DNA of 64,000 bases from an uncultured Candidatus Saccharibacteria bacterium (GTDB lineage: Bacteria > Patescibacteriota > Minisyncoccia > Phycocordibacterales > UBA2100). The translations under genes were made by a program, and so were the position numbers. Positions 1-63,990 of this stretch are shown here, in pieces. Within the stretch, counting starts at the first letter, position 1; every line of letters begins with the position of its first letter. The stretch spans positions 42,593 through 106,592 of the forward strand of contig CAYYEX010000005.1 in assembly GCA_964471165.1 (NCBI GenBank). The letters are read 5' to 3'. A model generated the notes under the pieces. That model ran no database searches and was not told where the DNA came from. It was given only the letters and a program-made list of their open reading frames with translations.

Positions 1-299
1 TGACAAGGGTAAGCGCTCACGAATGTTCGGTACAACTCTAGGAACGAGTGCCAGTAGTACGATTGCAAACACCAGGAGGGCGAGGAGATGATACCGGCTC
101 AATCGCGACATTGGGGTCAGTATACGCCCACGTCCTCTTTATCGTCTATTGGAACAGCGAGAAAAAGCTGACGATTGCTAGAATACGTTGCCACCGGCCC
201 TGAAGCTCTTGTTATTTATACACGCGACAGTTATGCACCCTGTCAATCAGGGGCGGCTATTCAACTGGCAAAGGGGTAGGTAGTCAGGCAGACCGTATA

Positions 300-1388
300 A
301 TGTGTCGTGAGGTCTGGCACGCGCAGGTCAACCGTTTCGACAGAAATATGACAAACCGAATTTCACTGCAACATAACGAAAGCTACTGGTTGCTCGATGA
401 TGTACTCATGAAAGCGTACACAGCAGATGCAACTGCGGTCTTTTCTCGCTACCCAGATTACGCAGAGCTCACCGAGCTCCTTGCTGAATACGTAGGAGTT
501 ATTCGAGAAAATATTCTGGTCACGAGCGGCTCAGATGCTGCCGTGCGTTTGATTGCGGAATTAGAGCACGAATCGGGTAATAAAGTGTTGCTCCCCGTGC
601 CGTCTTTCTACGGGTATGAAAAGATTTTTTCGCAAATCGGGCTTGATTTTGACACGGTGTCTTTCACGGAAGAAATGGGAGTGTTTACATTTCCACTCGA
701 TGCTGCACGAACACTCATTCAGAGCGGCGCATACTCGGCACTCTTTATTTGCCAGCCAAATAACCCGCTTGGTTCTGCACTGTCAGAAGAAACAATCAAT
801 ACGCTCATAACGCTGTGCGGCAACTGCGGCGTCCGCTTGATTATCGATGAGGCATACTTTGAATTTCTTGGGCGCACTTCGGTATCAGAAATTTCACAGC
901 AAAACATCGTAATTTTGCGAACACTCTCAAAGTCACTCGGCTTGGCGGGAGCGCGCGTCGGTTATGTGTGTGCAAACTCTGCCTATCTGAAGCTGCTCTC
1001 TGCAAGAATGCTGCCATGGTCGGTAGCGCATCCGTCTGTCTACGCTGCTGTCGCCGGATTGAGACAGATTGCGCATGTGCGCACGCGGATGGAAGCGGTC
1101 ATACACGAACGCGCAGTGTTTCTCGGCGCCTTACGACAGGTACCGGGCGTTCACGCCTATCCATCTGAAACGAACTTCATACTTTCTCGCGTTGATAATG
1201 CACAAAATGTAGCTGCCGCTCTCAAAGAAAAGGGGATAGATGTGGCACTGTGTTCTTGGATGTCGAACGATACCGACGCCAGAGCGCTACTTTCCGACAC
1301 AATCCGGATGGCGGTACCTTCGCCCAGTGACCGAGACAGGGTCATTGCGACACTTGAAGAGGCGGTCGCAGGCACTAGACAAATGTAG
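300..1388 (+). CDS. Class I/II pyridoxal-phosphate aminotransferase, histidinol-phosphate/aromatic aminotransferase (HisC) family
   Basis: 362-aa ORF; motif LSKSLGLAGARVGYV matches the HisC-family PLP-lysine region (KSFGLAGLRVGY). A TATAAT box at 296-301 overlaps the first ATG, so the true start may be a downstream Met. Confidence 0.75.
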   Translation: MCREVWHAQVNRFDRNMTNRISLQHNESYWLLDDVLMKAYTADATAVFSRYPDYAELTELLAEYVGVIRENILVTSGSDAAVRLIAELEHESGNKVLLPVPSFYGYEKIFSQIGLDFDTVSFTEEMGVFTFPLDAARTLIQSGAYSALFICQPNNPLGSALSEETINTLITLCGNCGVRLIIDEAYFEFLGRTSVSEISQQNIVILRTLSKSLGLAGARVGYVCANSAYLKLLSARMLPWSVAHPSVYAAVAGLRQIAHVRTRMEAVIHERAVFLGALRQVPGVHAYPSETNFILSRVDNAQNVAAALKEKGIDVALCSWMSNDTDARALLSDTIRMAVPSPSDRDRVIATLEEAVAGTRQM

Positions 1389-1414
1389 AATAAGGTGGTA
1401 CTATACAAACATCT

Positions 1415-2956
1415 ATGAAATCGCACAAAGCGAAGTCCGCGATTACCAGCAAGAAAGACGCGGCTCTCCAGCGTCTCTCGATGTTTCTGCCCTCACAAAA
1501 GGCAACGTCCGCACACTGGTCAAAAATGCAAGCCGACTACATGGTCGATGCATTTAAAAGCGCTGCAAAGCACGTACCTGCGTACCGCTCATTCCTCAAG
1601 GAGCGCGGTGTTATGGCAAAGGACATAAAATCCGTTGCGGACATGAAAAAGGTGCCGCCCACATCAAAAAAGAATTATTTACGCAGTCACCCGTGGGAAG
1701 ACTTGTGTATGCCGGGCTCTCTTGCGGGCACACAGCTCGTTCTCACCGCAACCTCTGGCTCAACGGGCGAACCGTTCTATTTTCCACGCACGGATGTTGT
1801 TGAGGAGCAGTCGTACATCTATCACCGCACGTTTCTAAAGAACAGCGGACTCGACCCCCAGGAGCCCACGCTCGTAATCGTGGCATTCGGAATGGGTGTG
1901 TGGATTGGCGGACTTATTACATACGAGGCTTTCAACCGCATCTCCCAGCGCGATTTCCCGCTTACTCTTCTCACCCCAGGTGTAAACAAGCATGAAATTT
2001 ACGCGGCACTGCGCGAAATTGGGTCTCGATACACGCAGGTAATTCTTTGTGGCTATCCTCCGTTTGTAAAAGACATCATCGACGATGGTAAGGGAAACGG
2101 CGTGGACTGGAAACAGTTCGACATGCGAATCGTGTGTGCGGCCGAAGGTTTTTCCGAAGACTTCCGTGATTACCTCGTAACAGAGGCTCACATGACGAAT
2201 CGGTATCGCGACATCATGAATATCTACGGCAGCGCGGAGCTTGGCACAATGGCTACGGAGACCCCTCTTGCTGTTTTGGTTCGAGAACTCAGTCTCAAAA
2301 ACCCCGTACTGTTTTCAAAGTTGTTTGGGGAGGCAACGCGTTTGCCGACACTTGCGCAATACATTCCATCATTCGTTAGTTTCGAAGCGGTAGATAATCG
2401 TATTTACTGTACCTCCGGCAATGTGTTACCGATGATTCGCTATGAAATTGGTGATCACGGTGGCGTGATGACATATGCAGAGCTCAAAAATATCTGCGCG
2501 TCAGAGGGAGTTGACCTCAAGGCTGAAGCAAAGAAGGCGGGTATTACCGATACGGTCAAAGAACTACCGTTTGTCTATGTGTATGAACGCGCCGATCTTT
2601 CTACAAAACTTTACGGTGCAATTATTTACCCAGAACACATTAAGCACGGGCTGATAATCAAGAGTCTGCACAAGGAAGTAACTGGCAAGTTTACAATTGC
2701 AACTAAGAATGACGAAAACCAGGATGAATACCTTGAGGTAAACGTTGAGTTACAACCCAAGGTGCAACCCTCGGAAGACCTCAAGGAGCGTGTCACACAG
2801 GCCATCAATGAAGCGCTTATCGCAAAGAGTGCAGAGCACCGAAACAACTCGCTCTCGCTCGGGGAGCGTGTAATTCCTCGCGTTACATTCTGGGAGCATA
2901 ACCACGCGGAACATTTCCCGGTGGGTGCAAAACACCGCTGGGTAAAGAAGAAATAA
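1415..2956 (+). CDS. Adenylate-forming enzyme, phenylacetate-CoA ligase (PaaK)/coenzyme F390 synthetase family
   Basis: 513 aa; adenylation motif TSGSTGEPFYFPRT; N-terminal PaaK-like region ending VPPTSKKNYLR; starts 27 nt after the upstream gene. Confidence 0.75.
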   Translation: MKSHKAKSAITSKKDAALQRLSMFLPSQKATSAHWSKMQADYMVDAFKSAAKHVPAYRSFLKERGVMAKDIKSVADMKKVPPTSKKNYLRSHPWEDLCMPGSLAGTQLVLTATSGSTGEPFYFPRTDVVEEQSYIYHRTFLKNSGLDPQEPTLVIVAFGMGVWIGGLITYEAFNRISQRDFPLTLLTPGVNKHEIYAALREIGSRYTQVILCGYPPFVKDIIDDGKGNGVDWKQFDMRIVCAAEGFSEDFRDYLVTEAHMTNRYRDIMNIYGSAELGTMATETPLAVLVRELSLKNPVLFSKLFGEATRLPTLAQYIPSFVSFEAVDNRIYCTSGNVLPMIRYEIGDHGGVMTYAELKNICASEGVDLKAEAKKAGITDTVKELPFVYVYERADLSTKLYGAIIYPEHIKHGLIIKSLHKEVTGKFTIATKNDENQDEYLEVNVELQPKVQPSEDLKERVTQAINEALIAKSAEHRNNSLSLGERVIPRVTFWEHNHAEHFPVGAKHRWVKKK

Positions 2957-2977
2957 CGGTATACTAAAGGCCATCCT

Positions 2978-4159
2978 ATGGAAGGCCTACCGGAGAAGCT
3001 TCAAGAAATGCGCGCTCGCCCCATACCGGAGCGCCCGCGCTTTTTTGATATCAAAACAGATTCGGCTGAGCTATCTGCACTTATTGATTCTGGAGCACTC
3101 TTGCGTGTTTCTGATGACTACGAGGAAGCGTCTCGTGAGCTTTTTGCTATACAGAATCCGACACTCGTGTATGCACCGGGGTTTGAGGACGCATTCCAAA
3201 AACACTACACAATTCTTACAAGCAATGTGCCCGAGATACTCGGACGCTGGGTATATTTTCCCTGGAACGGCACACTGTGCCATATCCTTGCAGAAGCCGA
3301 TTACTTTCGCGTCCGAACGGCGCGCAATCGGAATTTGATAACAGAGGTAGAACAGGAGCGATTCTACAATTCGACAATCGGTATTGCAGGGCTCTCGGTG
3401 GGTTCGAGTGTTGCATTCAGTATTGCGCTACAGGGCGGCGGAAAGAAACTCAAACTTGCTGACATGGATTATTTGGCGCTTTCAAACACGAATCGTGTTC
3501 TCTCGGGTGCCCCGGAGTTGGGCTCGCTCAAGGTATCTATGGCAGCCAGACGTATTTACGAAATGAATCCCTATGCAGAAATCGAGCTGTTTCCACAAGG
3601 ATTACAACCTGAAAACATAGCAGCATTTTTCGACGGACTCGATATTGTTATCGACGAGCTTGATAACCTAGCTGTAAAATTTTTAATTCGAGAGCATGCA
3701 AAAAAGAACCACATTGCGGTAGTAATGGGCGCCGACAACGGGGACAATGCGGTTATTGATATTGAACGCTACGATGTGGACCCACAGCCACCATTCTTTC
3801 ATGGTCGGATGGGGAATGTTTCCTACGATTCACTCAAGGCGCTGGATAAGTTCGGTATCGGCAAAACTATTACGCAACACATCGGTCCAGAGAATGTAAC
3901 GATGCGTATGCAGGAATCTTTGATGGAAATGGGCAAAACCATTGTTTCCTGGCCGCAATTGGGCGGTGCTGCGCTCATCAACGGGGCAGCGGTTGCATAC
4001 TGCGTACGAAAGATTCTCAACGGGGAGAAGCTCGAGTCGAATCGCGCACTCGTATCGGTTGATGAAAAATTAGTTCCCGACTTTATGTCAGATGAGCAAA
4101 AAAAGGAGCGGACTGAAACCGCGCACGCATTTGCTGCCCGATTCGGCATCACACTATGA
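2978..4159 (+). CDS. E1-like/ThiF-MoeB family protein with degenerate nucleotide-binding glycine loop and ~130-aa N-terminal extension
   Basis: 393 aa; Rossmann-like segment IGIAGLSVGSSVAFSIALQGGGKKLKLADMDY resembles ThiF/MoeB/E1, but the GxGxxG motif is degenerate (GIAGLSVGS). 22-nt gap to the upstream gene and 4-nt overlap with the downstream gene. Confidence 0.6.
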   Translation: MEGLPEKLQEMRARPIPERPRFFDIKTDSAELSALIDSGALLRVSDDYEEASRELFAIQNPTLVYAPGFEDAFQKHYTILTSNVPEILGRWVYFPWNGTLCHILAEADYFRVRTARNRNLITEVEQERFYNSTIGIAGLSVGSSVAFSIALQGGGKKLKLADMDYLALSNTNRVLSGAPELGSLKVSMAARRIYEMNPYAEIELFPQGLQPENIAAFFDGLDIVIDELDNLAVKFLIREHAKKNHIAVVMGADNGDNAVIDIERYDVDPQPPFFHGRMGNVSYDSLKALDKFGIGKTITQHIGPENVTMRMQESLMEMGKTIVSWPQLGGAALINGAAVAYCVRKILNGEKLESNRALVSVDEKLVPDFMSDEQKKERTETAHAFAARFGITL

Positions 4160-5208
4160 ACGAAGACATCCTGTTTGCGCTCTCCGCTGCAAACGCAGCA
4201 CCATCCGGTGAGAACAGTCAGCCGTGGCGCTTCATCGTACGTGAAGACAAGGTCGAGCTCTGGAACCGACCAGAGCGTGATCGTTCGCTGTATAACTGGC
4301 AACAAAGTGCCTCGTATGTTTCAAATGGTGCCGCCCTTGAAAACATGGTTATTGCGGCAAGCGCCCGTGGTCTCGCAACTGAGGTGGAGTATTTTCCACA
4401 AACGAGCACAGACCATGTGGCAACGGTTCGTTTTACGCGCGGTGCATCTCCGGACCCGCTTGCTGAGCCGGTTCTTAAACGAGCAACAAACAGAAAGCCG
4501 TATTCGAAAGAGTCGCTCACACCGGCACAAGCCGGCGCACTATCGGGTTGTTTTGAAAAGGATCTCTGTTCACTTCGACTGATTGGCGAGAGAGATGCAA
4601 TCAATCGCCTCGGACGCATTGGCTCCACGAATGAAGAGATTATGCTCACGAGCAAACAAATCCACTCGTTCTTCTTTGAGCACGTGAACTGGACTCCTGC
4701 CGAGGACGCAAAAAAAACTGTTGGCTTTTTCATAGATACACTTGAGTTGCCACCGCCGGCCCGCGTGATGTTTCGTTTGCTTCGTCGCTGGCCGGTTGCG
4801 TTGCTGCTTACCCGACTCGGGCTGCATCGTGTCATTGCCAAGGAGAACGGAGCGGTGAATGCCTCTGCCGCTGCTATTGGGATAGTTTCTGTGCGTTCGC
4901 TTGAGCCAACAGAGCTCGTACGAGCGGGTCGCGCAATCGAGCGCATCTGGCTTACAGCAACATCGCTTGGGCTTTCATTCCAGCCGCTCTCGGGCATGTT
5001 GTTTTTTGAGTTAATGCGGGCACACGGTGACGCGTCGAAATTCTCTGAAACACATGCAAAAATGATTGAAGAAGCATACGCCGAAGTCCGACGCATTTCC
5101 GGTTTCTCTGAGGGTTCAATCGTCTTTATGTTCCGCACCGGAATAGGGGAGCCCCCGACAGCACGCTCATCTCGCTTTACGCTTGAACGCACAATGCAGG
5201 CTGAGTAA
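4156..5208 (+). CDS. Nitroreductase-superfamily protein, apparently two tandem nitroreductase-like halves (SagB/McbC-type dehydrogenase-like)
   Basis: 350 aa; N-terminal APSGENSQPWRF motif typical of the FMN nitroreductase fold; a second basic motif KRATNRKPY is further in; about twice the size of single-domain nitroreductases. Confidence 0.65.
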   Translation: MNEDILFALSAANAAPSGENSQPWRFIVREDKVELWNRPERDRSLYNWQQSASYVSNGAALENMVIAASARGLATEVEYFPQTSTDHVATVRFTRGASPDPLAEPVLKRATNRKPYSKESLTPAQAGALSGCFEKDLCSLRLIGERDAINRLGRIGSTNEEIMLTSKQIHSFFFEHVNWTPAEDAKKTVGFFIDTLELPPPARVMFRLLRRWPVALLLTRLGLHRVIAKENGAVNASAAAIGIVSVRSLEPTELVRAGRAIERIWLTATSLGLSFQPLSGMLFFELMRAHGDASKFSETHAKMIEEAYAEVRRISGFSEGSIVFMFRTGIGEPPTARSSRFTLERTMQAE

Positions 5209-6784
5209 ACATATGGAAATTTCCACCCTTGTTCAGATAAATGTTGATCTCTTACTTGTTGCTGTTTCCGTATGCGGCATCGCGTTGCTTGGTTTTTTGA
5301 TTTTCTTCAACAACAGATCGAGCGAAACGAATCGTTCCTTTTTGCTCTTTTCGGTGCTCACAGTCGTATGGGGTATATCAAATTACCTGGAGTATAGATT
5401 TACATCTTCAACATCTGCACTTTGGGCGCTGCGTATTCACTTGTTTATTTCTGTCTGGCACGCGTATGCGTTTTTCCGCTTGGCATACGTGTTCCCAAAT
5501 TCTTTAATGTCGTATCCAAAATGGTTTACCCATTATCTAACGCCCGTTGTTGCTGTTACGTCACTTCTCACATTGACTCCCGCTGTTTTCTCCGGCCTCG
5601 ACCATTTACCGGCTGCTGGGCAGGTAACAAAGGCGGTTCCGGCTCCGGGGATAGCTCTCTTTATGCTGGTCGCATTCGGACTACTCGCTTCCGCGATATA
5701 TGTCCTTGCTCGCAAGATGTATCGTGCACCTGGTGAATCACGTAAACAGACAGGTGCGCTCCTCATCGGTATGGCGCTCACTGCGTGCCTGCTACTCACG
5801 TTCAATGTAATTCTGCCGAATGTTTTCAATAACACGAGTTTTATACCGCTGGCCGCTTTGTTTATCTTGCCGTTCATAGCGCTGACTTCGTATTCAATAT
5901 ATCGCTATCACTTCCTCAACCTGAAGGTGGCGACCACCGCAGTTCTCGGCTTTATGGTAACCATCTTTACGTTCTCAAATATATTGTTTGCAAAGGACCT
6001 CGCGGGGATAGCGATAAACGTGACTGCATTTATTATCGTGCTCTTGGGGTCAATACGAATTGTCCGCGATACGCTTGATTTGCAGCTGGCGAACGAGGAG
6101 CGCTCCGAATTCATGTCGTTTGCGTCACACGAAATCCGCAACCCGATTACAGCCATGCGCGGGCTCGCCTCACTTATTGTTGATGGGACCACGGGAGAAA
6201 CAACGAAGGATACAAAAGAGGCTGCTCAAAAGATTCTTGTTGCGGGACACGATGTGCTCAATATTATTGCAACATTCCTCAGCAAGTCGAAGCTCGAGAT
6301 TGGTCAAATCGGTTATGACAAGGCGACGTTTGATTTGGGTGAAGCGGTCGCCCAGATTGCCGACGGCTACGTTCCGCACGCAGAAATCAAGGGACTTACA
6401 TTCGATATCAAAATCGACCGCTCTCACAAGTACTTGATTTCGGGCGACCAAGGAAAGGTAAAGGAGGTTGTGGGTAATCTCATAGACAACTCGCTCAAGT
6501 ACACCAAGGAGGGCGGTATGACTGTCTCTGTAGAGCGGCATGCAGCCTTTGTGAGATGCGTCATATCCGACACAGGGGTTGGCATCCCGCCAGAAACTCT
6601 GCCGTCGTTGTTTAAGAAGTTCTCTCGAGCCGATGCCCAGAAGGTGAATCTGCTTGGCACGGGCGTCGGGCTCTACCTCGCAAAGCTATTCATTGAAGCC
6701 CAGGGTGGCCGCATTTGGGCCGAATCCGACGGGGCAGGCAAGGGCTCGCGCTTCATAATCGAGTTTAACTCGGTGCAGGCTTAA
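5183..6784 (+). CDS. Membrane sensor histidine kinase (multi-pass N-terminal domain + HisKA + HATPase_c)
   Basis: 533 aa; 7-8 predicted TM helices in the N-terminal half; H-box FMSFASHEIRNPITAM; G-box GTGVGLYLAKLFIEAQGG; overlaps the upstream gene by 26 nt; no adjacent response regulator. Confidence 0.85.
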   Translation: MNAQCRLSKHMEISTLVQINVDLLLVAVSVCGIALLGFLIFFNNRSSETNRSFLLFSVLTVVWGISNYLEYRFTSSTSALWALRIHLFISVWHAYAFFRLAYVFPNSLMSYPKWFTHYLTPVVAVTSLLTLTPAVFSGLDHLPAAGQVTKAVPAPGIALFMLVAFGLLASAIYVLARKMYRAPGESRKQTGALLIGMALTACLLLTFNVILPNVFNNTSFIPLAALFILPFIALTSYSIYRYHFLNLKVATTAVLGFMVTIFTFSNILFAKDLAGIAINVTAFIIVLLGSIRIVRDTLDLQLANEERSEFMSFASHEIRNPITAMRGLASLIVDGTTGETTKDTKEAAQKILVAGHDVLNIIATFLSKSKLEIGQIGYDKATFDLGEAVAQIADGYVPHAEIKGLTFDIKIDRSHKYLISGDQGKVKEVVGNLIDNSLKYTKEGGMTVSVERHAAFVRCVISDTGVGIPPETLPSLFKKFSRADAQKVNLLGTGVGLYLAKLFIEAQGGRIWAESDGAGKGSRFIIEFNSVQA

Positions 6785-6809
6785 ATAACGCCCTTTTTCT
6801 GCTATATTT

Positions 6810-7793
6810 GTGCCTATGGCTCGATTACTGACGGGGCTCCAGCCCTCGGGAACACTTCATATCGGTAACTATCTTGGCGCACTACGCCCGTTCGTCGAAT
6901 TATCGAAAAGCGGGGAATACGAACATATCTTCCTGATGGTGGTGGATTACCATGCGCTTACATCGCTCAAAAATCCTCGGGAACTCAAACAGAACATCAT
7001 TTCCGTCGTAGCCGACTACGTGGCCGCCGGAATCGACCCAAACAAAGCAATCATATTTAAGCAATCCGACGTGCCACAGCACACTGAGCTGGCCTGGATA
7101 TTTAGTTGCCAAATGAGCACCTCGTTTCTCGAGCTTGGACATGCCTTCAAGGACAAGGTAGCAAAGGGAATAGATTCAAATGTCGGATTGTTCACATATC
7201 CGCTTTTGATGGCCGCTGATATTCTGCTCTACGACGCAACCGATATTCCGGTTGGTGAGGACCAACGCCAGCACATTGAGTACACGCGCGAAATCGCTGC
7301 GAAATTCAATATCAATTATCCTGGCCGTTCCCGCATCTTTAATGAGAATGTAAAGGAAAGAATCTTCGAAGGAACGGGCATCATTCCCGGAGTTGATGGC
7401 GCAAAAATGAGCAAAAGCTATGGCAACACTATTCCACTTTTTGCCACAGATGCGGAGATTCAACAGGCGGTTATGAGTATCAAAACTGGGTCAGAAGCTA
7501 TGGGTTCATCGCTTCCTGTTGATGATACGGTGTTGAAACTCTTTAAACACTTTGACCCAGAAGGGGCTGCTGCACTCGCTGGACGCTACCAGGCCGGTGC
7601 AGTTGGTTACAAGGAAGCAAAGGAAATACTCGCAAAAGCAATCATTACGGCGACGCATGACATGCGAGTGAAGCGACGCGATATTACAACAGAACAGGTG
7701 GAAGATATTCTTAAAAAAGGAAAAACGAAGGCGCGCGCGTTTGCACGAAAGAAAATGGACCTCGTACATCGCCGTATCGGAGTTGAAGTCTAA
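6810..7793 (+). CDS. trpS: Tryptophanyl-tRNA synthetase
   Basis: HIGH-type motif TLHIGNYLGA, KMSKS motif present, 327 aa. A TATATT -10 box sits 8 nt upstream of the ATG, so likely leaderless. Confidence 0.9.
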   Translation: MPMARLLTGLQPSGTLHIGNYLGALRPFVELSKSGEYEHIFLMVVDYHALTSLKNPRELKQNIISVVADYVAAGIDPNKAIIFKQSDVPQHTELAWIFSCQMSTSFLELGHAFKDKVAKGIDSNVGLFTYPLLMAADILLYDATDIPVGEDQRQHIEYTREIAAKFNINYPGRSRIFNENVKERIFEGTGIIPGVDGAKMSKSYGNTIPLFATDAEIQQAVMSIKTGSEAMGSSLPVDDTVLKLFKHFDPEGAAALAGRYQAGAVGYKEAKEILAKAIITATHDMRVKRRDITTEQVEDILKKGKTKARAFARKKMDLVHRRIGVEV

Positions 7794-30487: not shown

Positions 30488-33388
30488 CTATTCTTCAACA
30501 ACGAAGTTCACGAGCTTTTTTGGTACCACTATTACGCGTTTGATTATCTTACCTGCGAGTCGCTCAGCAACAGTCTCCTTCGCCATAATTTCCAGAGCCT
30601 CTTTGTCGGTATCTTTTGAAGCAACGAAATCGCCTCGAAGTTTTCCGTTTATTTGTATTGCAATAGTCACCTCGTCAAACTCCAACTTTGTTTCATCAAA
30701 TCCGGGCCAGGCTTCCTTGTGAATTGAGGTGTCGTGTTTAAGAAAATCATGCCATAGCTCTTCGGTCATGTGCGGAGCAAATGGCGACAGAACACGAAGG
30801 AAATCCTCATACAACTCAACTGTTACGTTCTGCTCCTTATCCTCCATCAAGTTCAAAAGCGACATCATCTGACTAATAGCGGTATTAAATTTGAAAGACT
30901 CAATGTCTTCTCCTATCTTTTTAATCGCAATATTCATAGAGTTACTCATGTAGGGGGTGACTCCATTTTCGACGGATGTTGGCAGGACTTTGTCTGAAAG
31001 ACGCCACACTTTTTCAAGGAAGCGCCGTGAACCAATCATGCTTTGAGTATTCCACGCAATGGAGTCTTGGAATGGACCCATAAACATTTCATACACGCGC
31101 ATGGTGTCGGCGCCGTAGCTCTCCACGATATCGTCCGGATTAATCACGTTTCCGTATCGCTTACTCATCTTGCGACCGTCTTCGGCCATAATCAGCCCCT
31201 GGTGACGCAACTTGAGGAATGGCTCGTCGAAGTTCAAATATCCCATGTCTCGCAGTGCCTTGGTGAAGAAACGGGCATACAGCAGATGCAGCACCGTATG
31301 CTCTGCCCCACCGATATACAAATCAACCGGGAGCCAATCTCGCAACGCTTCGGGCGATGTAAACTCCTGGTCATTGTGTGGGTCTGCAAAACGAAAGAAA
31401 TACCACGATGAGCATGCAAAGGTGTCCATCGTATCAATTTCCGGTCTCCAACCTTTGCCGAAGACTCGTTCCGTTCGCTCGAACAATTCTTTTGAGCTTC
31501 CTAGTGGCGACGTACCTTTCGGCAGGTACTCAACATCCGTGGGCAAAAGCCACGGCAAGTGCTCAGCGGGAACTGGGTGCGGCTTCCCCTCTGGGTCGTA
31601 CACAATTGGAATCGGGGTGCCCCAGTAGCGCTGACGCGAAATAAGCCAGTCGCGCATCTTGTACGTTTTCTTTACGCGCCCAAACTTTTCTGTAATCGCG
31701 CGCTTTGCTTCCTCAGTATCCAAACCATCGTATGCACCGGAATTAATAAGAATACCGTCGCCGACAAAGATAAATTGTTCGTTGTCGATAAAATTCAATG
31801 TGTAGTCCCCTTCGACAACTGTGAAGTGATTATTCAGCTCTTTGCGCGTCTTCCAGACAACCTCGTGCAGTGCAGCCTCCTTTTCTGATACTGGCTCCTG
31901 CTCAGTATCGATGAGTTCCAAGAAAACATAACGAAATCGAGCGCCGCGATTTTCTAGCTTTACGCGATGGAAGAAAAGCGTGTTGATTGCAAAGTCCATA
32001 TTGCGCACCAGACGCAGATTCTTGTAGCCGGTTTCCTCTCGCACCTCTCGCATCGCGGCCTCAGCCACATTCTCCCCCGCATCAATGCCGCCCGTTACTA
32101 AACCCCGCATGTTGATGCCGTTTTTCCAACTGATGGTGAGGTACGTATCATCTGCCGGATTGCGAACAATCACAGCGACCGCATCACGCTTGATGATAGG
32201 TAGCTCAGGCTTTATTGGTGAGTCCGAACTATCGCGAAATATCGGTTCGACAACCTGTCGAATTGGGAGGTTGTATTTAAGTGCAAACATGTGGTCACGT
32301 TCGTCGTGCGCCGCAACTGCCATGATGGCGCCTGTACCGTAGTGAGCAAGAACGTAGTCGGCAACAAAGAGCGGAATCTTTTCTCCGTTTGCGGGATTGA
32401 TAGCCACTACACCTTTTAGCTCCACTCCAGTTTTCTCTTTGTCGGCCGACAAGCGGTCTATATCAGTTTTCCTTCTCGATGCTGCCACATAATCTGCGAC
32501 CTCGTCGTTATTCTTAAGAACTGTTTTGTGTCCGAGTGCGAGGGTTACCCATTGGTGCTCGGGAGCAAGAACAAGGTAGGTTGCACCGAACAAAGTGTCA
32601 GGCCTGGTCGTGAATACAGTGATATGAGCACGCTTGCCCGTATCATCGGTACGTGCATTTACTGTCTCGTCTCCAAAATCAAGATAGAAATCGAGTTCAG
32701 CGCCTTCCGAGCGACCAATCCAGTTTCTTTGGTTAATCTTGGTCGACTCTGGCCAATCAATTGTGTCGAGCTTGTCGGCGAGCTCATCTGCGTAATCTGT
32801 TATTTTGAAAAACCACTGTTCCAAATCCTTTTTTTCCACAACAGCTCCCGAACGCTCTGCTGTGCCATCGGGCAGCACCTGCTCATTGGCAAGCACGGTC
32901 TGGTCAACGGGGTCCCAGTTTACGAGCGCCTTCTTTTTGTACACAAGCCCCCTTTCAAAAAACTTGGTGAACAGCCACTGTGTCCAGCGGTAGTAATCTG
33001 GTCGATGGCTCCCAATCTCACGATCCCAATCGTATGAAAGTGCCAGGTTTGAAATCTGCGACTTGAATGTCGCAATGCTTTCATCAGTCGTCTGCTGCGG
33101 AGGCGTTCCTGTTTTAATCGCGTAGTTTTCTGCCGGAAGTCCGAATGCATCCCACCCCATTGGGTGCAGCACCCGGTGACCCTCCATGCGCTTTTTTCGA
33201 GCCACGATGTCAGAGGCAATGTAGCCCTTTGGGTGTCCGACATGGAGCCCGGCACCGGATGGGTACGGAAACATGTCGAGTACGTAGTATTTCGGCTTCG
33301 AGGTGTCAGCGTCAGTTTTATAGGCGCCGTCTTTGGCCCACTGTTTCTGCCATTTCTGCTCGACTTTCTTATGGTCGTACGACTTCAT
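30488..33388 (-). CDS. leuS: Leucyl-tRNA synthetase with an inserted NUDIX hydrolase domain
   Basis: 966 aa; HIGH (PSGAGLHVGHPKGY); editing-domain TTRPDT motif; GTGAIMAVAAHDERD; KMSKR (RKMSKRYGN). About 135 extra residues lie between ...LPIRQVVEPIF and GILINSGAYDGLD, and they contain a canonical Nudix box [23 protein letters not shown]. Confidence 0.9.
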   Translation of the reverse strand: MKSYDHKKVEQKWQKQWAKDGAYKTDADTSKPKYYVLDMFPYPSGAGLHVGHPKGYIASDIVARKKRMEGHRVLHPMGWDAFGLPAENYAIKTGTPPQQTTDESIATFKSQISNLALSYDWDREIGSHRPDYYRWTQWLFTKFFERGLVYKKKALVNWDPVDQTVLANEQVLPDGTAERSGAVVEKKDLEQWFFKITDYADELADKLDTIDWPESTKINQRNWIGRSEGAELDFYLDFGDETVNARTDDTGKRAHITVFTTRPDTLFGATYLVLAPEHQWVTLALGHKTVLKNNDEVADYVAASRRKTDIDRLSADKEKTGVELKGVVAINPANGEKIPLFVADYVLAHYGTGAIMAVAAHDERDHMFALKYNLPIRQVVEPIFRDSSDSPIKPELPIIKRDAVAVIVRNPADDTYLTISWKNGINMRGLVTGGIDAGENVAEAAMREVREETGYKNLRLVRNMDFAINTLFFHRVKLENRGARFRYVFLELIDTEQEPVSEKEAALHEVVWKTRKELNNHFTVVEGDYTLNFIDNEQFIFVGDGILINSGAYDGLDTEEAKRAITEKFGRVKKTYKMRDWLISRQRYWGTPIPIVYDPEGKPHPVPAEHLPWLLPTDVEYLPKGTSPLGSSKELFERTERVFGKGWRPEIDTMDTFACSSWYFFRFADPHNDQEFTSPEALRDWLPVDLYIGGAEHTVLHLLYARFFTKALRDMGYLNFDEPFLKLRHQGLIMAEDGRKMSKRYGNVINPDDIVESYGADTMRVYEMFMGPFQDSIAWNTQSMIGSRRFLEKVWRLSDKVLPTSVENGVTPYMSNSMNIAIKKIGEDIESFKFNTAISQMMSLLNLMEDKEQNVTVELYEDFLRVLSPFAPHMTEELWHDFLKHDTSIHKEAWPGFDETKLEFDEVTIAIQINGKLRGDFVASKDTDKEALEIMAKETVAERLAGKIIKRVIVVPKKLVNFVVEE

Positions 33389-34926: not shown

Positions 34927-36000
34927 TTATGTGTGATTGCTTTTTACGAGCAAAAGCTCAAACCAAAATGCGCTTCCTTTACCCGGCTTGGAGCGAACGT
35001 TTAACTCCGCCCCGTGAGCACGAACGACTTCGCGCACAATATGTAGACCGAGTCCCGAACCAGCTGTTAAGGATGATTTCGCGTCATTACTTCTGAAATA
35101 GGGGTCGAATATATGTTTCTGGTCTGCAATCGATATTCCGCGCCCAGCATCCGTGACCGAAGCAATAACACGCGACCCCTCTTCGGTCACCGATACATAC
35201 ACAGGTACGTCGGCTCCGGCATATTTAAGCGCATTTTCTATCAAATTTCGTAGCACTTGTTCGATTCGTTCTCTGTCTGCGTGGACAATGCATTGCGTCT
35301 TTGCAACGCTGACAATTCGACCTGGATACGCATATTGAGCTTGTGCAACTGAATGCACGAGTTCAGCTATATCAAAATCGCGTGTATGGAGCACAATTTT
35401 ACCAGCTTCAATCTGCCCAACATCTAACAGAATTGCCGCCAACGCTTCCAAGCGTCGAATCTCAGCTCGCAATGCTCGCGTCGATTCGTCGCCATGCTCC
35501 ATCGTCACTATCTCGGTTAACACATCAAGGTTTTGTAAAGGAGCACGAATGTCGTGTGCTGCGATTCGTATAAATTGCTTTTGGAATTCCGCCGTGCGTT
35601 TTGTTTCGGTAATGTCGTCAAGAATTTGAACATAGTGCAATCTCCCGCTTGATTGCACCGGATACACAGTCGATGACAAATTGAAATATGAGCCGTTCTT
35701 ACGTTTGTCTATAACTTCCGTCGTTTGAAACGGCTTACCAGCCTTCAGTGTTTCCCACATCTTGATGTAGACATCGGGCTGTGTTTTTCCGCTCTGGAGT
35801 ATGCGCGGATTTTTCCCTACGACCTCGGATTGCTTGTAACCGAACTGCCGCTCCCATGCACTATTCACGTAAATTATTTCGGCCCGGTCATTTGTGACAA
35901 GAGTTGGGAGTGGAGATGTGTTCGTGAGTGCACGAAAAAAATCTATACCACTATCGACCATCATGTGCTTTGTGCGCGTAGCACGACGATATCGACTCAT
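34927..36000 (-). CDS. Cytoplasmic PAS-domain sensor histidine kinase
   Basis: PAS-like N-terminus; H-box AAHDIRAPLQNL; HATPase_c G-boxes (GSGLGLHIVREVV); 357 aa; no adjacent response regulator. Confidence 0.85.
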   Translation of the reverse strand: MSRYRRATRTKHMMVDSGIDFFRALTNTSPLPTLVTNDRAEIIYVNSAWERQFGYKQSEVVGKNPRILQSGKTQPDVYIKMWETLKAGKPFQTTEVIDKRKNGSYFNLSSTVYPVQSSGRLHYVQILDDITETKRTAEFQKQFIRIAAHDIRAPLQNLDVLTEIVTMEHGDESTRALRAEIRRLEALAAILLDVGQIEAGKIVLHTRDFDIAELVHSVAQAQYAYPGRIVSVAKTQCIVHADRERIEQVLRNLIENALKYAGADVPVYVSVTEEGSRVIASVTDAGRGISIADQKHIFDPYFRSNDAKSSLTAGSGLGLHIVREVVRAHGAELNVRSKPGKGSAFWFELLLVKSNHT

Positions 36001-38712: not shown

Positions 38713-40767
38713 CTACTGCACCGCAGCGGCTGTTGCTTGCGTAAACACGGTGCCATTCTGCGCGGTACACGCAATCATGAATCGCATAATGCCGCTCGAC
38801 GAAGCCATCACAATTTTCGAGCCTTCGTTTGTCGTTCCTATCGTTGTAGTCCCCGTCTTTGTGACCATAATGGTTCTGCACGGAATACTCGGATTTGTTC
38901 CCACGCTCGACCACGAAACTACAATGCGATTTCCAACATATGCGTTTTGCGGCTGCGCCACAATGGAAGCCACCGCCTGCTGTTGCGAAGCCTGAGATTG
39001 GTACTGAACCTGCTGAGCCGTCGGATTCTGAACGGGTGCCTGGGAAGTAGGCCGAAACATATTTCCAAAGGCAGATGACCCCGAACCACCTGAGTTCGTG
39101 GAATAACCGGTCGGTGTTGAGTACCCCGTTGGAGTGGAGTATCCGGTCTGGCCATCGTAAAACGGATTAGCCGCATTGAACGCACTTCCACCACCTGTGT
39201 ATGTGCCACTGCCGCTTGTAATTCCCGTAAATGGGGAGCCGTTCGTTGCCATGGAAGGTATCACGCTTCCGTTTCCACCGAGGCGCCGGTCAAGTTCGCC
39301 AAATACTCCAGCAACAGTTCCACCACTTCTGAATATCGAACTATTGTTATTGCATGCTGAATTACCGAGCGCGGAGCCGCACAGGGAGAACGCAGAATTG
39401 TTTGGGCCATTAACGTATGCGTTGTACATTCGCTGGTAGCCGCCTTCTCCAAATACGTGGATTGCATACTGACAGGATGTAAGCGTGAGACCCGCCTGTG
39501 TGCACGAGGTGCCGTACTTTTCAGCAAATTGATTCATCTTTGCGTTCATCACGTGAGTCGAGATAGTGGGGTCATTTCGATAGTTGCAATCGGAATACTG
39601 ACCGTTGCCGGTGGAGTTTGCGTACGCCTGCCATGTTGGGCATAGAAAGTGGTACGGGCCTTGAACAGAGGAAAGCGGGTTGCTGTTAATGCGACCGCAG
39701 CTACTTTCAGCTCGCATAATATTTCCTGCAAGACCCTCCACGCCACACTGCTGTGGTAAGCCAGATGAAACTTTCGCCTCCTGCTCAAACGTATTTTCTC
39801 GCAGTAGCCGCTGCTGTTCTGCAATTTCCTTAGCTTCGTCGGGTGTAATTTGTTTTGGCGGCGCCATTTCCGCAATACTCTTCATAGTATCCTCGTTGAG
39901 GTTCAACTCTTTCGCAATTGCCTGCGCTCCTGCGGTGTCGTTTGAAAGCGACTTTTGAATCATTTCTTTTATCTTATCGGAATCACTTTCGACAAGCGCC
40001 TTAGCCTGATCAGGCGGCACTTTGTATTTTTCCGTCAGCATCTGCGCGAGCGCATCCGAATCCTTTGGTGTCTCCGGCGGTTTAGCAACGCCTGTCTCAT
40101 CAGGCTGTGGTGTTTCGGCCGGCTTCGACGCGGTTACCGTCGAATCAAGCGTCTCCTCTTTTGGTGCAGGCGATGGAGACCCGAGTCTGCTGAATTGGTC
40201 AAAACCAGGATCAAGTCCGTTTTTTCCGTTGGTCGTAAACGCCTTTATCGCATTTTCGACGTTTGGGTCGCAACGAGACTTCGGCCCTTCAACTCTTTCG
40301 TTGGTAAGTACGGCAGGAATTGTGTAGCCGAGAGCTTTTCCCGCAATTGCCTCAAACGTACCGATAGGAACGGACTTGGCCGTCACAGAGGGCAGCCCCT
40401 TTCCGTTTCTGCAACTTCGCGCTTCAAATGGCTTATCGAGAGGTGAATATACATTTTTTACCTTGGCAGGGTCGGGCTTTTGGCCGCCACAATGGTCTTT
40501 CGCCGTCGTAACAATCTTTAATTTTTTGTCCTGTGCACTGATGGTAAGCACCACATCAAAACACGCATTCGGACATACTACTTTCTGTTTGAGAAAGTTA
40601 TCCATGACAGAGGCGTCGCTATTATCGTCCACGAAGAAATTTATTCCAGACGGGTTTCCCGTTTTGCCCTGGCACAGCTTATCGAGCGCTGCATCTGCAG
40701 ATGCGGCATATGGAAATACCAGCATGGATACCGCAACAAAAAAGATTCCTGCGCGCATTCTCTGCAT
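38713..40767 (-). CDS. Large secreted protein with Ser/Thr/Gly-rich low-complexity tail and tandem PTGYST repeats; central region with possible lysozyme-like (SLT-like) motifs
   Basis: 684 aa; signal peptide MQRMRAGIFFVAVSMLVFPYAASADA; central ES...YNAYVNG motif spacing weakly resembles lytic transglycosylase family 1; C-terminal ~250 aa are S/T/G/N-rich with (PTGYST)x3. Confidence 0.55.
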   Translation of the reverse strand: MQRMRAGIFFVAVSMLVFPYAASADAALDKLCQGKTGNPSGINFFVDDNSDASVMDNFLKQKVVCPNACFDVVLTISAQDKKLKIVTTAKDHCGGQKPDPAKVKNVYSPLDKPFEARSCRNGKGLPSVTAKSVPIGTFEAIAGKALGYTIPAVLTNERVEGPKSRCDPNVENAIKAFTTNGKNGLDPGFDQFSRLGSPSPAPKEETLDSTVTASKPAETPQPDETGVAKPPETPKDSDALAQMLTEKYKVPPDQAKALVESDSDKIKEMIQKSLSNDTAGAQAIAKELNLNEDTMKSIAEMAPPKQITPDEAKEIAEQQRLLRENTFEQEAKVSSGLPQQCGVEGLAGNIMRAESSCGRINSNPLSSVQGPYHFLCPTWQAYANSTGNGQYSDCNYRNDPTISTHVMNAKMNQFAEKYGTSCTQAGLTLTSCQYAIHVFGEGGYQRMYNAYVNGPNNSAFSLCGSALGNSACNNNSSIFRSGGTVAGVFGELDRRLGGNGSVIPSMATNGSPFTGITSGSGTYTGGGSAFNAANPFYDGQTGYSTPTGYSTPTGYSTNSGGSGSSAFGNMFRPTSQAPVQNPTAQQVQYQSQASQQQAVASIVAQPQNAYVGNRIVVSWSSVGTNPSIPCRTIMVTKTGTTTIGTTNEGSKIVMASSSGIMRFMIACTAQNGTVFTQATAAAVQ
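39098..39152. repeat. Three imperfect 18-nt tandem repeats encoding (PTGYST)x3 within the secreted protein gene
   Basis: ggaataaccggtcggtgtt / gagtaccccgttggagtg / gagtatccggtctggcc on the plus strand, in the minus-strand CDS. Confidence 0.7.
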
Positions 40768-40812: not shown

Positions 40813-42129
40813 CTACTGTCGAGTAAACATTCTCATCATGCTTTCAAAAAGTGTTCGGAATGACGCGATAATAGAAAGAAATGTCTGCGTTGTCTGTGGT
40901 GAGAGTGCCTGCTCGCTCTGCACTATTGTTTGCTGCTGGAATGTATTTTCCTGTGGCGCTGTTGCTGAATAGCTAACAGGATTATTGGGGCGTGGAATAG
41001 TTCCTGCACCCACCACCTCAGCTGAGTTTGCCTGCATCTGCGCCACATCATCGTATTGAGATACAGCCATTAAGGACACATTACTAGTGTCATAAAGAGC
41101 TGCAGGAGCCGGGCTCTGCTGTTGAACAACAGGGCGAGACCCCGCGGATTGTGGCGTGGAGAACAAATCAATGAGTGCCTGTGCCGTGCTTTGAACAACT
41201 CGTATTCCCGATGTTGCGCTCGATTGCTGGAAGAGCGAAGAGAGCATCGTGCTCGACGGAGTGCCTTGAGTGGGAACGGGTGCCTGCGGCAGCGGTGCCC
41301 CGTAATATCCAGGGTCTGCGTAGGCAGGCGCGCCTGTGTAAACCTGCGAGCCATTCCCGACTGCGCCACCCCCGGAACTTCCCCCAGTAGAACCACCAGT
41401 CGGCGAGGATTGCGGTTCCTGGTACGACTGTCCCGGAGATTGCCCTGGGCTCTGCATTCCTTGCAGCGGATTCTGTGGCGCAAGACTCATCGGCGGAATA
41501 TGCTGCGCACTCACAGGAGTGCCCTCTTCTTTTGGCTGTCCTCCACACGGAGCGAGTGCTGATGCGGCATCGCCTGACTGCCTTGGAATACCAGCGATTT
41601 GAGTCCAATCTTTAGGCGCACGATTGGGATTTTTTGTAATGTAGTTCATTGCAAACTCCGCTGAATACCCATTGAAGTTTCCTACCGCAATATCCATTTT
41701 GTCGGTTCGCGCTTTTCCATCGCAGAATTGACGTACGAATGCACACGAACAAGTCCCATTGAAGGCGCAACCGGTGTCGTGCACATAGCCAACCACGTTA
41801 CTGAGCGTGTGCGTCTTTCCGTCGCCACCATTGCCAGGCGGCGAAGTGTACGTGACTGTGCCAATGCAATAGTAGCGGCCTTTCATTGAGGAGGCGGATG
41901 CGAGCGTTACGTACTTAGACTTACCGAGTCGCACGTCGTCGAGCGTATGTATTCCATTCGATGAACCTTCCGCATCTTTCTGTGATGCAGTCATCGGCCC
42001 TTGCATTTTCCCTGATGCTCCCGGGCCGTAAAACGTCCAGTTAATTGTGTTTGCGGCGTCCGCACTGGAATAAACAAAGAAAATGAGCAATACGACTGAA
42101 TACAAAATCACCCGTGGCATTACACACAT
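40813..42129 (-). CDS. Secreted hypothetical protein with Cys-rich N-domain and Pro/Gln/Ser/Gly-rich low-complexity C-terminus
   Basis: Start placed at MCVMPRVILYSVVLLIFFVYSSADA (signal peptide); the tracked ORF extends to 42285, overlapping atpC. Repeats QSPGQSPGQS and GGSTGGSSGGG. Confidence 0.5.
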   Translation of the reverse strand: MCVMPRVILYSVVLLIFFVYSSADAANTINWTFYGPGASGKMQGPMTASQKDAEGSSNGIHTLDDVRLGKSKYVTLASASSMKGRYYCIGTVTYTSPPGNGGDGKTHTLSNVVGYVHDTGCAFNGTCSCAFVRQFCDGKARTDKMDIAVGNFNGYSAEFAMNYITKNPNRAPKDWTQIAGIPRQSGDAASALAPCGGQPKEEGTPVSAQHIPPMSLAPQNPLQGMQSPGQSPGQSYQEPQSSPTGGSTGGSSGGGAVGNGSQVYTGAPAYADPGYYGAPLPQAPVPTQGTPSSTMLSSLFQQSSATSGIRVVQSTAQALIDLFSTPQSAGSRPVVQQQSPAPAALYDTSNVSLMAVSQYDDVAQMQANSAEVVGAGTIPRPNNPVSYSATAPQENTFQQQTIVQSEQALSPQTTQTFLSIIASFRTLFESMMRMFTRQ

Positions 42130-42184
42130 TGTACCGTTACTTGTGCGGCTACAGTTTGCCGCATGTGGAGAATTTCGCACCCGC

Positions 42185-42433
42185 CTACAACAACACGACA
42201 ACGCGATTCGACGAGCACTCGAGCACACCACTTTCAATATCAAACTTTTGCACAATACCCTCCTGGTTCCTGACCGATATGGCACCCTTGTTGAGAGTGG
42301 TTACGATTGGCTCATGGTGCGGGAGAATTGTCATCTCACCAGCGGAGCCTGGCACAATAACGGACTGCGCGCGGCTATCAAAGAGGGTTTCGCCCACGCT
42401 AGCGACCACGAGATGAAACGTGTTCTCTGACAT
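42185..42433 (-). CDS. atpC: F1 ATP synthase epsilon subunit, N-terminal beta-sandwich only (82 aa)
   Basis: Consensus-like N-domain (HLVVASVGETLFD...ILPHHEPIVTTL). Ends about 50 residues short of typical bacterial epsilon, so no C-terminal helical hairpin. Confidence 0.8.
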   Translation of the reverse strand: MSENTFHLVVASVGETLFDSRAQSVIVPGSAGEMTILPHHEPIVTTLNKGAISVRNQEGIVQKFDIESGVLECSSNRVVVLL

Positions 42434-63582: not shown

Positions 63583-63990
63583 TTATTTATCTCTGTGTTG
63601 TGCAAAGTCCATGAGGAGCTGCGACAGAGCGCTTGCGTCGACTGGCTTTGTCATGTGCGAGTCAAAACCGGCTTCTAGAGCGCGAGATTTATCAGCTGCC
63701 TGACCCCATCCAGTAATTGCCACTAACTTTATTCTTTTACCGTGATTATTAGTCCGGATTAGCCTCGCCGCCTCATATCCATTCATATTAGGCATGCCGA
63801 TGTCGAGCAAAACGAAATCGGGATTAAAGCGCGTGACTTCTCGGACCGCCTCCAATCCATCGGACGCAGTTGCAACTTCGTTGCCCCGCAGACGAAGCAT
63901 CGTCGAGAGTGTGGTGAGAGCGTCTTTATTGTCATCTGCAATGAGAATGCGCAACGAGCCCACACTCGCCGCACGAGCTGGTGTCTGCAC
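63583..63990 (-). CDS. Stand-alone response-regulator receiver (CheY-like) protein
   Basis: LRILIADDN...FVLLDIGMPNMNGYE...KLVAITGW...TKP: the acidic pocket, phospho-acceptor Asp, Thr and Lys are all present; 135 aa. Confidence 0.8.
   Translation of the reverse strand: MQTPARAASVGSLRILIADDNKDALTTLSTMLRLRGNEVATASDGLEAVREVTRFNPDFVLLDIGMPNMNGYEAARLIRTNNHGKRIKLVAITGWGQAADKSRALEAGFDSHMTKPVDASALSQLLMDFAQHRDK

Follow-up and report, generated by a model that had tools for sequence, protein, structure and literature searches.

What do five closely packed genes near the start of a 64,000-nucleotide (nt) stretch of DNA from an uncultured Candidatus Saccharibacteria bacterium (contig CAYYEX010000005.1, positions 42,593 to 106,592; hereafter the window) encode together? 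In order, they specify a HisC/CobD-like aminotransferase, a PaaK-fold adenylate-forming ligase, a ThiF/E1-like protein, a nitroreductase-superfamily flavin-dependent oxidase (FDO), and a sensor histidine kinase with a seven-transmembrane (7TM) domain. An earlier note on this DNA likened the locus to a maturase of thiazole/oxazole-modified microcins (TOMM) or linear azole-containing peptides (LAP) in which the YcaO cyclodehydratase had given way to a different adenylating enzyme. The analysis presented here points to a small-molecule pathway instead. With moderate confidence, the last four genes constitute a cassette, spread across the Candidate Phyla Radiation (CPR, or Patescibacteria), for a variant of the pathway to oxazolones (N-acyl-dehydroamino acids). 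This pathway is related to the known OxzAB, TyzACB, and TrzAS pathways; its new features are a ligase instead of an acyltransferase, a co-operonic 7TM kinase, and a wide distribution in Patescibacteria. A literature search for a CPR version of the oxazolone pathway found no description.

The characterized relatives of the central enzyme pair act on N-acylated aromatic amino acids. Rv1355c (TrzS) cyclizes N-acyl-tryptophan in an ATP-dependent reaction and desaturates it in an O2-dependent one, to N-acyl tryptazolone (PMC12856293). Both activities have also been described on N-acyl-tyrosine, for the split and adjacent TyzB and TyzC of Mycobacterium tuberculosis (PMC10404671) and for OxzB of Pseudoalteromonas rubra (bioRxiv 10.1101/2020.06.11.147165), and planctomycetal N-acyl-dehydrotyrosine clusters carry ThiF/nitroreductase genes with the same activities (PMC12479983). 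By the count of one review, OxzB alone among ThiF-like enzymes has been validated as acting on a small molecule (PMC12596934).

The ThiF-like protein and the flavin-dependent oxidase

The ThiF-like gene (2978-4159) and the FDO gene (4156-5208) lie on the plus strand, the start of the latter overlapping the stop codon of the former by 4 nt. In scans against Pfam and NCBIfam (NCBIfam matches taken at E ≤ 0.01), the ThiF-like protein matches NF005901, the model of the Rv1355c family, over model positions 21-352 (E 5.4e-96, 322 bits), as well as Pfam ThiF (E 2.8e-21). The FDO matches the remainder of NF005901, positions 381-719 (E 1.2e-59, 202 bits). Summed, the two scores reach 524 bits, above the 476-bit cut-off of this 722-position model, and the two proteins are 36-39% identical to annotated Rv1355c-family proteins. 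The FDO also matches NF011424 (E 8e-61) and, at 150.7 bits (cut-off 199), the Acg-family model NF047509; its nearest PDB entry is Acg (2ymv), and its motifs APSGxNxQPW and RxTNRK do not vary across 51 orthologues. Because the two proteins match both halves of NF005901, the window encodes a split oxazolone synthetase of the TrzS/OxzB type, comprising a putative ATP-dependent cyclase and a two-lobed, putative O2-dependent C-alpha/C-beta desaturase.

The degenerate glycine loop of the ThiF-like protein had been taken as a sign of a non-functional nucleotide site. This loop, GLSVGS, is typical of the Rv1355c/TrzS family of ATP-dependent cyclases (PMC12856293). It recurs in Rv1355c-family proteins annotated by PGAP from Rhodococcus and Mycobacterium plasmids, in the fused CPR protein L080, and in a stand-alone Streptomyces homologue next to a GNAT gene; these are annotated family members rather than the very proteins assayed. 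Alignment with TcdA, the nearest solved structure by sequence (E 1.3e-10) and a cyclodehydratase that itself forms an oxazolone, sets AGLS-VGS in the window protein against VGIGGVGS, a one-residue deletion. Together with the loop, the Asp, Arg, and Lys motifs RTARNR, LADxD, SNxNR, K185, and DExDN are at least 95% conserved in 70 CPR orthologues. The last Asp of DExDN, D229, corresponds to ThiF Asp127 and TrzS Asp217, and the D217A mutation abolishes cyclization by TrzS (PMC12856293). A family-typical loop and a retained set of ATP-site motifs suggest that the E1-like protein is probably an active ATP-dependent cyclase, itself the cyclodehydratase, and not a dead docking scaffold.

These results bear directly on the TOMM/LAP reading, in which a dead E1-like docking protein would work with a dehydrogenase of the SagB/McbC type and an adenylating enzyme standing in for YcaO. 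The combination of an E1-like protein, a nitroreductase-fold dehydrogenase, and an ATP-using enzyme does resemble such a maturase, but only superficially at the level of domains. No TOMM model, including TIGR03605 and TIGR03882, matches the ThiF-like protein or the FDO at the NCBIfam threshold, their best matches being the Rv1355c and Acg families. A YcaO domain is absent from the five proteins (Pfam, NCBIfam) and from the core blocks of the 80 related loci described below. The apparent lack of a local precursor peptide also holds: the genes are separated by 26, 21, -4, and -26 nt, gaps of 21-26 nt are too small for a precursor open reading frame (ORF), and related loci show no conserved small ORF. 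Moreover, the closest characterized relatives use small molecules (PMC12856293). The ligase occupies not the place of YcaO, as had been proposed, but that of the N-acyltransferases OxzA, TyzA, TrzA, and NasY. On the model searches, the conserved ATP site, and the lack of both YcaO and a precursor, the TOMM reading is largely refuted and retains hardly any probability.

Another alternative is that the ThiF-like protein acts on a macromolecule, whether a tRNA, as in TcdA, or a sulfur-carrier protein, as in MoeB and ThiF, and that its neighbors are passengers. The similarity to the TcdA structure and weak matches to the MoeB and ThiF models are consistent with this idea. However, membership of these families was rejected, because the scores fall far under the respective cut-offs (MoeB, 61.6 bits against 449; ThiF, 57 against 275.25; TcdA, 43.7 against 304), compared with 322 bits for the Rv1355c family. 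The ThiF-like sequence has no CxxC zinc motif, no gene for a ThiS/MoaD-like small carrier lies nearby in the window, and linkage and fusions bind the protein to the FDO and the ligase. A macromolecular substrate is accordingly very improbable.

The stand-alone Streptomyces homologue mentioned above is encoded on a plasmid of Streptomyces sp. NBC_01426 (L088:7887-9661). It is 37% identical to the window protein, shares its N-terminal extension and GLSVGS loop, and overlaps the GNAT-family gene, with no FDO nearby; it may represent a saturated-oxazolone or other variant.

Conservation and fusions of the cassette

The conservation of the cassette was surveyed by scanning one genome per species with the PaaK-like ligase. 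The ligase is carried by at least 157 genomes, and in the best 80 of these the six-frame ORFs of the locus were searched with the window proteins. Neighbors were labeled by phmmer comparison of the window proteins with raw ORFs, which undercounts divergent or fragmented genes, and the denominators given here comprise only loci with sufficient contig room. All of the best 80 genomes are Patescibacteria or unclassified metagenome-assembled genomes, and the taxa among them include Paceibacterota and Kaiser-, Azam-, Taylor-, Nomura-, Uhr-, Magasanik-, Doudna-, and Harrisonbacteria.

Downstream of the ligase gene and on its strand, a ThiF-like gene is present in 70 of 73 loci, in 57 of them immediately adjacent. 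An FDO gene follows the ligase in 59 of 67 loci, and a HisKA_7TM kinase is found downstream in 44 of 52. The flanks, by contrast, vary between loci and include pilus genes, ApbE, DnaJ, and ribosomal genes. Conservation of the ligase, ThiF-like protein, FDO, and kinase in genomes with such differing flanks is far beyond chance, and the cassette stands as a conserved unit. Its variants include loci with the FDO before the ThiF-like gene, a kinase-receiver-kinase-receiver duplication, and FDO-less loci. Some cassettes have acquired extra genes for a methyltransferase, a short-chain dehydrogenase/reductase, or an alpha/beta-hydrolase, which are typical of small-molecule tailoring. In about 12 of the 80 loci (L025:11717-12634, L066:4202-5143, and L035:12646-13557, for example), the FDO and kinase genes are separated by one for a 303-313-residue protein with no Pfam or NCBIfam match, which may be an additional component of the pathway or of signaling.

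Gene fusions connect the enzymes further. In a full HMMER search, the ThiF-like protein drew 946 clusters at E ≤ 1e-30 from 1.84 billion representative proteins, and among the best 150 of these, 60 are fusions of a ThiF-like domain with an FDO. The suggestion that the E1-like and tandem-nitroreductase proteins form a functional pair is thereby borne out. Two other fusions occur once each among the best 150, both on single metagenome contigs. The first, P0325 (863 residues; L093:1114-3705), joins ligase and ThiF-like protein in frame, in a locus that runs from a Glu/Leu/Phe/Val-family (ELFV) dehydrogenase through the fusion to an alpha/beta-hydrolase, a HisKA_7TM kinase, and a receiver. The second, P0286 (924 residues; L094:153-2927), joins a ThiF-like domain to an aromatic amino acid lyase/aminomutase of the 4-methylideneimidazole-5-one (MIO) type. 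The MIO domain exceeds the cut-offs for tyrosine 2,3-aminomutase (547 against 501) and for a histidine ammonia-lyase subfamily (542 against 524), and the genes that follow the fusion encode, in turn, a distant PaaK-like ligase (29% identical to that of the window, E 1e-74), an FDO of the Acg family, and a HisKA_7TM kinase. The three kinds of fusion indicate that ligase, cyclase, and oxidase belong to one pathway.

The ligase, the sensor kinase, and the proposed pathway

The ligase gene (1415-2956, plus strand) encodes 513 residues. Against the PaaK model TIGR02155 the protein scores 54 bits, compared with a cut-off of 646.3, and only its N-terminal domain aligns. An AlphaFold2 model built from 47 sequences (pLDDT 83.6) finds its best Foldseek matches in PaaK1/2 (E 2e-19), BT_0428, ClxA (E 6e-14), and the 2-hydroxyisobutyryl-CoA ligase HCL. 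The ANL motifs, namely the P-loop T113-G118, YGS, GD, and the C-terminal K506, are invariant in the 47 sequences. Homologues number more than 2000, of which the top 120 are all more than 50% identical, and there are no paa genes near the ligase in the window. Judged by modeled fold and motifs, the ligase is within the superfamily but is not PaaK proper; it is a member of a Patescibacteria-specific clade. Its relatives outside CPR, from Nonomuraea and other Streptosporangiales, are 35% identical and belong to a large uncharacterized clade annotated as 'phenylacetate-CoA ligase family protein'. Their neighbors are regulators of the TetR/GntR/PadR type, FAD monooxygenases, and in some cases a kinase paired with a LuxR-type regulator (L087:6699-10371 in Nonomuraea, L091, L092). 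In the loci inspected, these relatives were never found beside a ThiF-like or FDO gene and offer no functional lead.

From its context, its fusions, and precedents within its fold, we infer that the ligase is a coenzyme A (CoA)-independent acyl-adenylate/amide ligase that would supply an N-acyl amino acid. ClxA and NatL2, which share the PaaK fold, adenylate an aryl acid and, with no need of CoA, directly form an amide or ester bond (PMC12519233), so that the proposed activity has a precedent. A literature search for a link between IaaL and PaaK found nothing.

Alternatively, the ligase may be an ordinary aryl- or acyl-CoA ligase that feeds an unlinked N-acyltransferase, or catabolism together with the aminotransferase, the ThiF-like protein and the FDO still making an oxazolone-type product. 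Its best sequence and structure matches are indeed phenylacetate-CoA ligases, and all described oxazolone systems use acyl-CoA and an acyltransferase (PMC10404671, PMC12856293, PMC12479983). However, three probes, few and of limited sensitivity (the Streptomyces GNAT adjoining the ThiF homologue and two neighbors of Rv1355c-family genes), revealed no N-acyltransferase in the window cassette or in any of the related loci, yielding only two weak off-strand matches. The low TIGR02155 score, the ThiF-like gene so often found immediately after the ligase, and the P0325 fusion likewise speak against a CoA ligase serving unlinked genes. To our knowledge, CPR genomes also generally lack fatty-acid and acyl-CoA metabolism, which we count against this alternative, and the lack of such pools would explain the replacement of an acyl-CoA transferase by a ligase. 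On these grounds an ordinary CoA ligase is unlikely. In L007 and L008, one further acyltransferase candidate, an ORF of about 165 codons that lies upstream of the aminotransferase gene, was rejected as a GNAT; it encodes a small membrane protein with no Pfam match and does not occur in the window.

Upstream of the ligase, the window carries a class I/II pyridoxal phosphate-dependent aminotransferase gene (348-1388, plus strand; longest ORF from 300). The ATG at 348 is most likely the start, since DNA homology to L007, a locus 88% identical, sets in at this point and orthologues have lengths of 340-346 residues. The protein matches Pfam Aminotran_1_2 (E 1.8e-41) and falls below both equivalog cut-offs in NCBIfam, scoring 206.6 bits for hisC (cut-off 276.55) and 180.8 for CobD (cut-off 290.55); it is proposed to interconvert an amino acid, possibly aromatic, and its 2-oxo acid. 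An aminotransferase lies directly upstream of the ligase in only 16 of 75 loci, and hence is not a core member as had been thought. In 18 of the 75 the same position is held by an ELFV dehydrogenase, whose best NCBIfam match is the tryptophan dehydrogenase ScyB (278-327 bits, under the 600-bit cut-off), and 41 have neither. With 16 aminotransferases, 19 ELFV dehydrogenases, and the single MIO enzyme, three unrelated kinds of enzyme acting on the alpha-amine of amino acids thus accompany the cassettes. The earlier note had also considered an aryl-acid ligase and aminotransferase joined to an E1/redox module that makes a small molecule, which comes close to the reading favored here. About 2 kb upstream of its cassette, the genome most closely related has, on the other strand, a gene for a protein that fuses chorismate mutase (CM_2) with a methyltransferase (L007:3698-4837, minus strand), a hint of a link to aromatic metabolism; the matching region falls outside the window.

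These amino-acid-handling genes also bear on a dipeptide or diketopiperazine route, in which the ligase would join two amino acids, the ThiF-like protein would activate the C-terminus to close the ring of a diketopiperazine or an aminoalkyl-oxazolone, and the oxidase would desaturate this product as the cyclodipeptide oxidase AlbA does in albonoursin formation. Their presence within the cassette fits such a route, nitroreductase-fold enzymes are known to desaturate diketopiperazines (bioRxiv 10.1101/2020.06.11.147165), and ClxA and NatL2 are amide ligases that couple amino-aryl acids (PMC12519233). Yet the ThiF-like protein and the FDO belong to the Rv1355c/TrzS family and are not of the AlbA type, and the removal or shifting of the alpha-amine by the accessory enzymes agrees better with making an acyl donor than with making a second amino acid. 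This route is therefore quite improbable. An ammonia-lyase, in particular, only deaminates, and for this reason supply of the acyl donor is the favored role of the accessory enzymes.

The oxazolone pathway proposed for the cassette would proceed in five steps. An optional enzyme, the HisC-like aminotransferase in the window and a ScyB-like ELFV dehydrogenase or MIO lyase/aminomutase elsewhere, would act on an aromatic or hydrophobic amino acid at its alpha-amino group, most likely giving a deaminated aryl acid, or else a modified amino acid. The ligase, standing in for the acyl-CoA N-acyltransferase of described systems, would then adenylate a carboxylic acid and, without CoA, pass the acyl moiety on to the amine of an amino acid, yielding an N-acyl amino acid. 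By homology to characterized enzymes, the ThiF-like protein would adenylate the carboxylate of this amino acid, the amide oxygen closing a 5(4H)-oxazolone ring, and the FDO would desaturate the C-alpha/C-beta bond with O2. Finally, as its conserved linkage suggests, the 7TM kinase may sense the product or control its synthesis.

The kinase gene (5183-6784, plus strand) encodes a polytopic protein with HisKA_7TM (E 2.5e-10, residues 26-247), HisKA (E 1.9e-11), and HATPase_c (E 1e-23) domains, so that the membrane sensor, the H-box (SFASHEIRNP), and the ATPase are all present. Translation may instead start at the ATG at 5213, with a +4 nt gap to the FDO, because conservation among the kinase orthologues begins near residue 22. 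Across 51 orthologues the sensor half and the catalytic core are about equally conserved (0.42 and 0.40 identity to the window residue, respectively), which lends weak support to a conserved ligand. No response regulator lies next to the kinase in the window, whereas in L027 and L093 the kinase is flanked by stand-alone receivers. The nearest receiver, a stand-alone domain at 63583-63990 on the minus strand, is a candidate partner. The only other two-component genes of the window are this receiver and a cytoplasmic PAS histidine kinase (34927-36000, minus strand).

Several observations weigh against the oxazolone pathway as proposed. The FDO is missing from 8 of 67 loci. In L003 (9595-12509) and L004, which have no FDO, the 7TM kinase is the next gene after the ThiF-like one, at a distance of about 140 nt, and in L093 an alpha/beta-hydrolase, with no FDO, separates the two; in the L003/L004 variant desaturation may be dispensable, or there may have been a loss of the FDO gene. 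An aminotransferase or dehydrogenase is present in less than half of the loci, and the three acyltransferase probes are few and of limited sensitivity. Among characterized proteins, the closest relatives of the ligase are CoA ligases, and its identity to any solved enzyme, 15-19%, is too low for its chemistry to be read from similarity. Linkage to the kinase gives no information on what the kinase senses. Lastly, TrzS Arg540 is required for normal loading of flavin mononucleotide and for desaturation (PMC12856293). Mapped by residue offset on annotated family members rather than on the TrzS_Msmeg sequence, this position falls in an SDR[IV]RF motif, where CPR FDOs read NE-x-[VI]-M-[LF] (NEEIML in the window) and only 7 of 51 orthologues have an Arg, so that flavin or substrate handling may differ. 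The same mapping finds the Gln651-equivalent QPxS kept.

What purpose such a product might serve is suggested by the kinase. In the view of the authors of the TrzS study, oxazolones are similar to signaling molecules and their physiological role is an open question (PMC12856293). The kinase linkage points to signaling as a possible role, and the cassette may be a small-molecule signaling module. In a stronger version, a self-contained CPR module would use the CoA-independent ligase route to make an aromatic N-acyl-dehydroamino-acid/oxazolone autoinducer, with the co-transcribed 7TM kinase as its receptor; this version is tentative and, on present evidence, doubtful. If true, these ultra-small episymbiotic bacteria would have their first described endogenous signal system of the quorum-sensing or symbiont-host type, and bacterial oxazolones their first assigned physiological role. 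A ligase-initiated, acyl-CoA-independent route would, if true, widen oxazolone biosynthesis. CPR bacteria have tiny genomes. As far as we know, they are thought to be almost devoid of secondary metabolism, and very little is known of their signaling. A small-molecule cassette commonly linked to a membrane sensor kinase is therefore a concrete candidate for episymbiont communication or host sensing.

Gene layout and comparison with known systems

The five co-directional ORFs lie on the plus strand where the earlier note had placed them (the aminotransferase ORF at its full length, 300-1388), and the peptides it quoted (TSGSTGEPFYF, GIAGLSVGS, and APSGENSQPWRF) are all found in the window. Its family assignments also agree with Pfam and NCBIfam: an aminotransferase, a weakly PaaK/F390-like protein, ThiF, the nitroreductase superfamily, and a HisKA_7TM kinase. 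Of the spacings it reported, -4 and -26 nt are correct, whereas 27 and 22 nt are each one too high. Tight spacing runs on beyond the kinase through the genes for tryptophanyl- and aspartyl-tRNA synthetases (TrpRS, AspRS), HIT, ScpA, ScpB, and further, to about 14 kb. Because it is common to this compact genome, spacing alone does not delimit the operon. A candidate -10 hexamer, TATAAT (296-301, plus strand), read from the sequence 47 nt upstream of the probable aminotransferase start, gives a weak indication of a promoter; having no -35 partner, it is missing from the consensus promoter scan. Scans of window positions 1-7200 for promoters and terminators, and against Rfam, gave nothing informative, the terminator-like sites being intragenic and unconvincing.

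Elsewhere in the window, leucyl-tRNA synthetase (30488-33388, minus strand; 966 residues) has an unusual insertion, a NUDIX domain (PF00293, E 1.7e-14, residues 400-522) just after the editing domain. Two adjacent minus-strand ORFs, at 38713-40767 (684 residues) and 40813-42285 (490 residues), have no Pfam match at E ≤ 1e-5.

Several characterized systems share parts of the cassette. The benzoxazole ligases ClxA, NatL2, and AjiA1 have the PaaK fold and the C-terminal catalytic lysine and hand an adenylated aryl acid straight to an amine or hydroxyl with no CoA, the reaction type proposed for the window ligase (PMC12519233, PMC9400959), but the latter is about 110 residues longer and has no amidohydrolase or benzoxazole genes around it. 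The likeness to ClxA is structural only, at 16-17% identity with the Foldseek match given above. Pairs of autoinducer synthase and sensor kinase, such as CqsA-CqsS, LqsA-LqsS, and agrBDCA, likewise link genes for a small hydrophobic molecule to a multi-pass membrane histidine kinase without a large extracytoplasmic domain. In contrast to these pairs, with which it has no sequence homology, the window cassette has no adjacent response regulator in the window.

The TyzACB, OxzAB, and planctomycetal NasY-ThiF-nitroreductase systems combine ThiF-type ATP-dependent cyclization with nitroreductase-fold desaturation of an N-acyl aromatic amino acid. TyzB and TyzC are split and adjacent, as in the window, and in both groups some clusters carry methyltransferase genes for tailoring. 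None of these systems has been reported with an adenylate-forming ligase, an aminotransferase or amino-acid dehydrogenase, or a co-operonic sensor kinase.

TrzAS (Rv1356c-Rv1355c), from mycobacteria and Rhodococcus, differs from the window cassette in several respects. The window enzyme is split into two genes with a 4-nt overlap, its hosts are CPR and not Actinomycetota, and the offset-mapped Arg540 position does not seem to be conserved in CPR FDOs. The window cassette also lacks the TrzA acyltransferase, having a PaaK-fold ligase before the cyclase, and includes a 7TM histidine kinase. Nevertheless, the homology of the cyclase and the FDO to the two TrzS halves runs from end to end. Both systems have the N-terminal extension, the GLSVGS loop, and the catalytic Asp (D217 in TrzS, D229 in the window), and some CPR relatives, such as L080 (731 residues, 442 bits), are fused as TrzS is.

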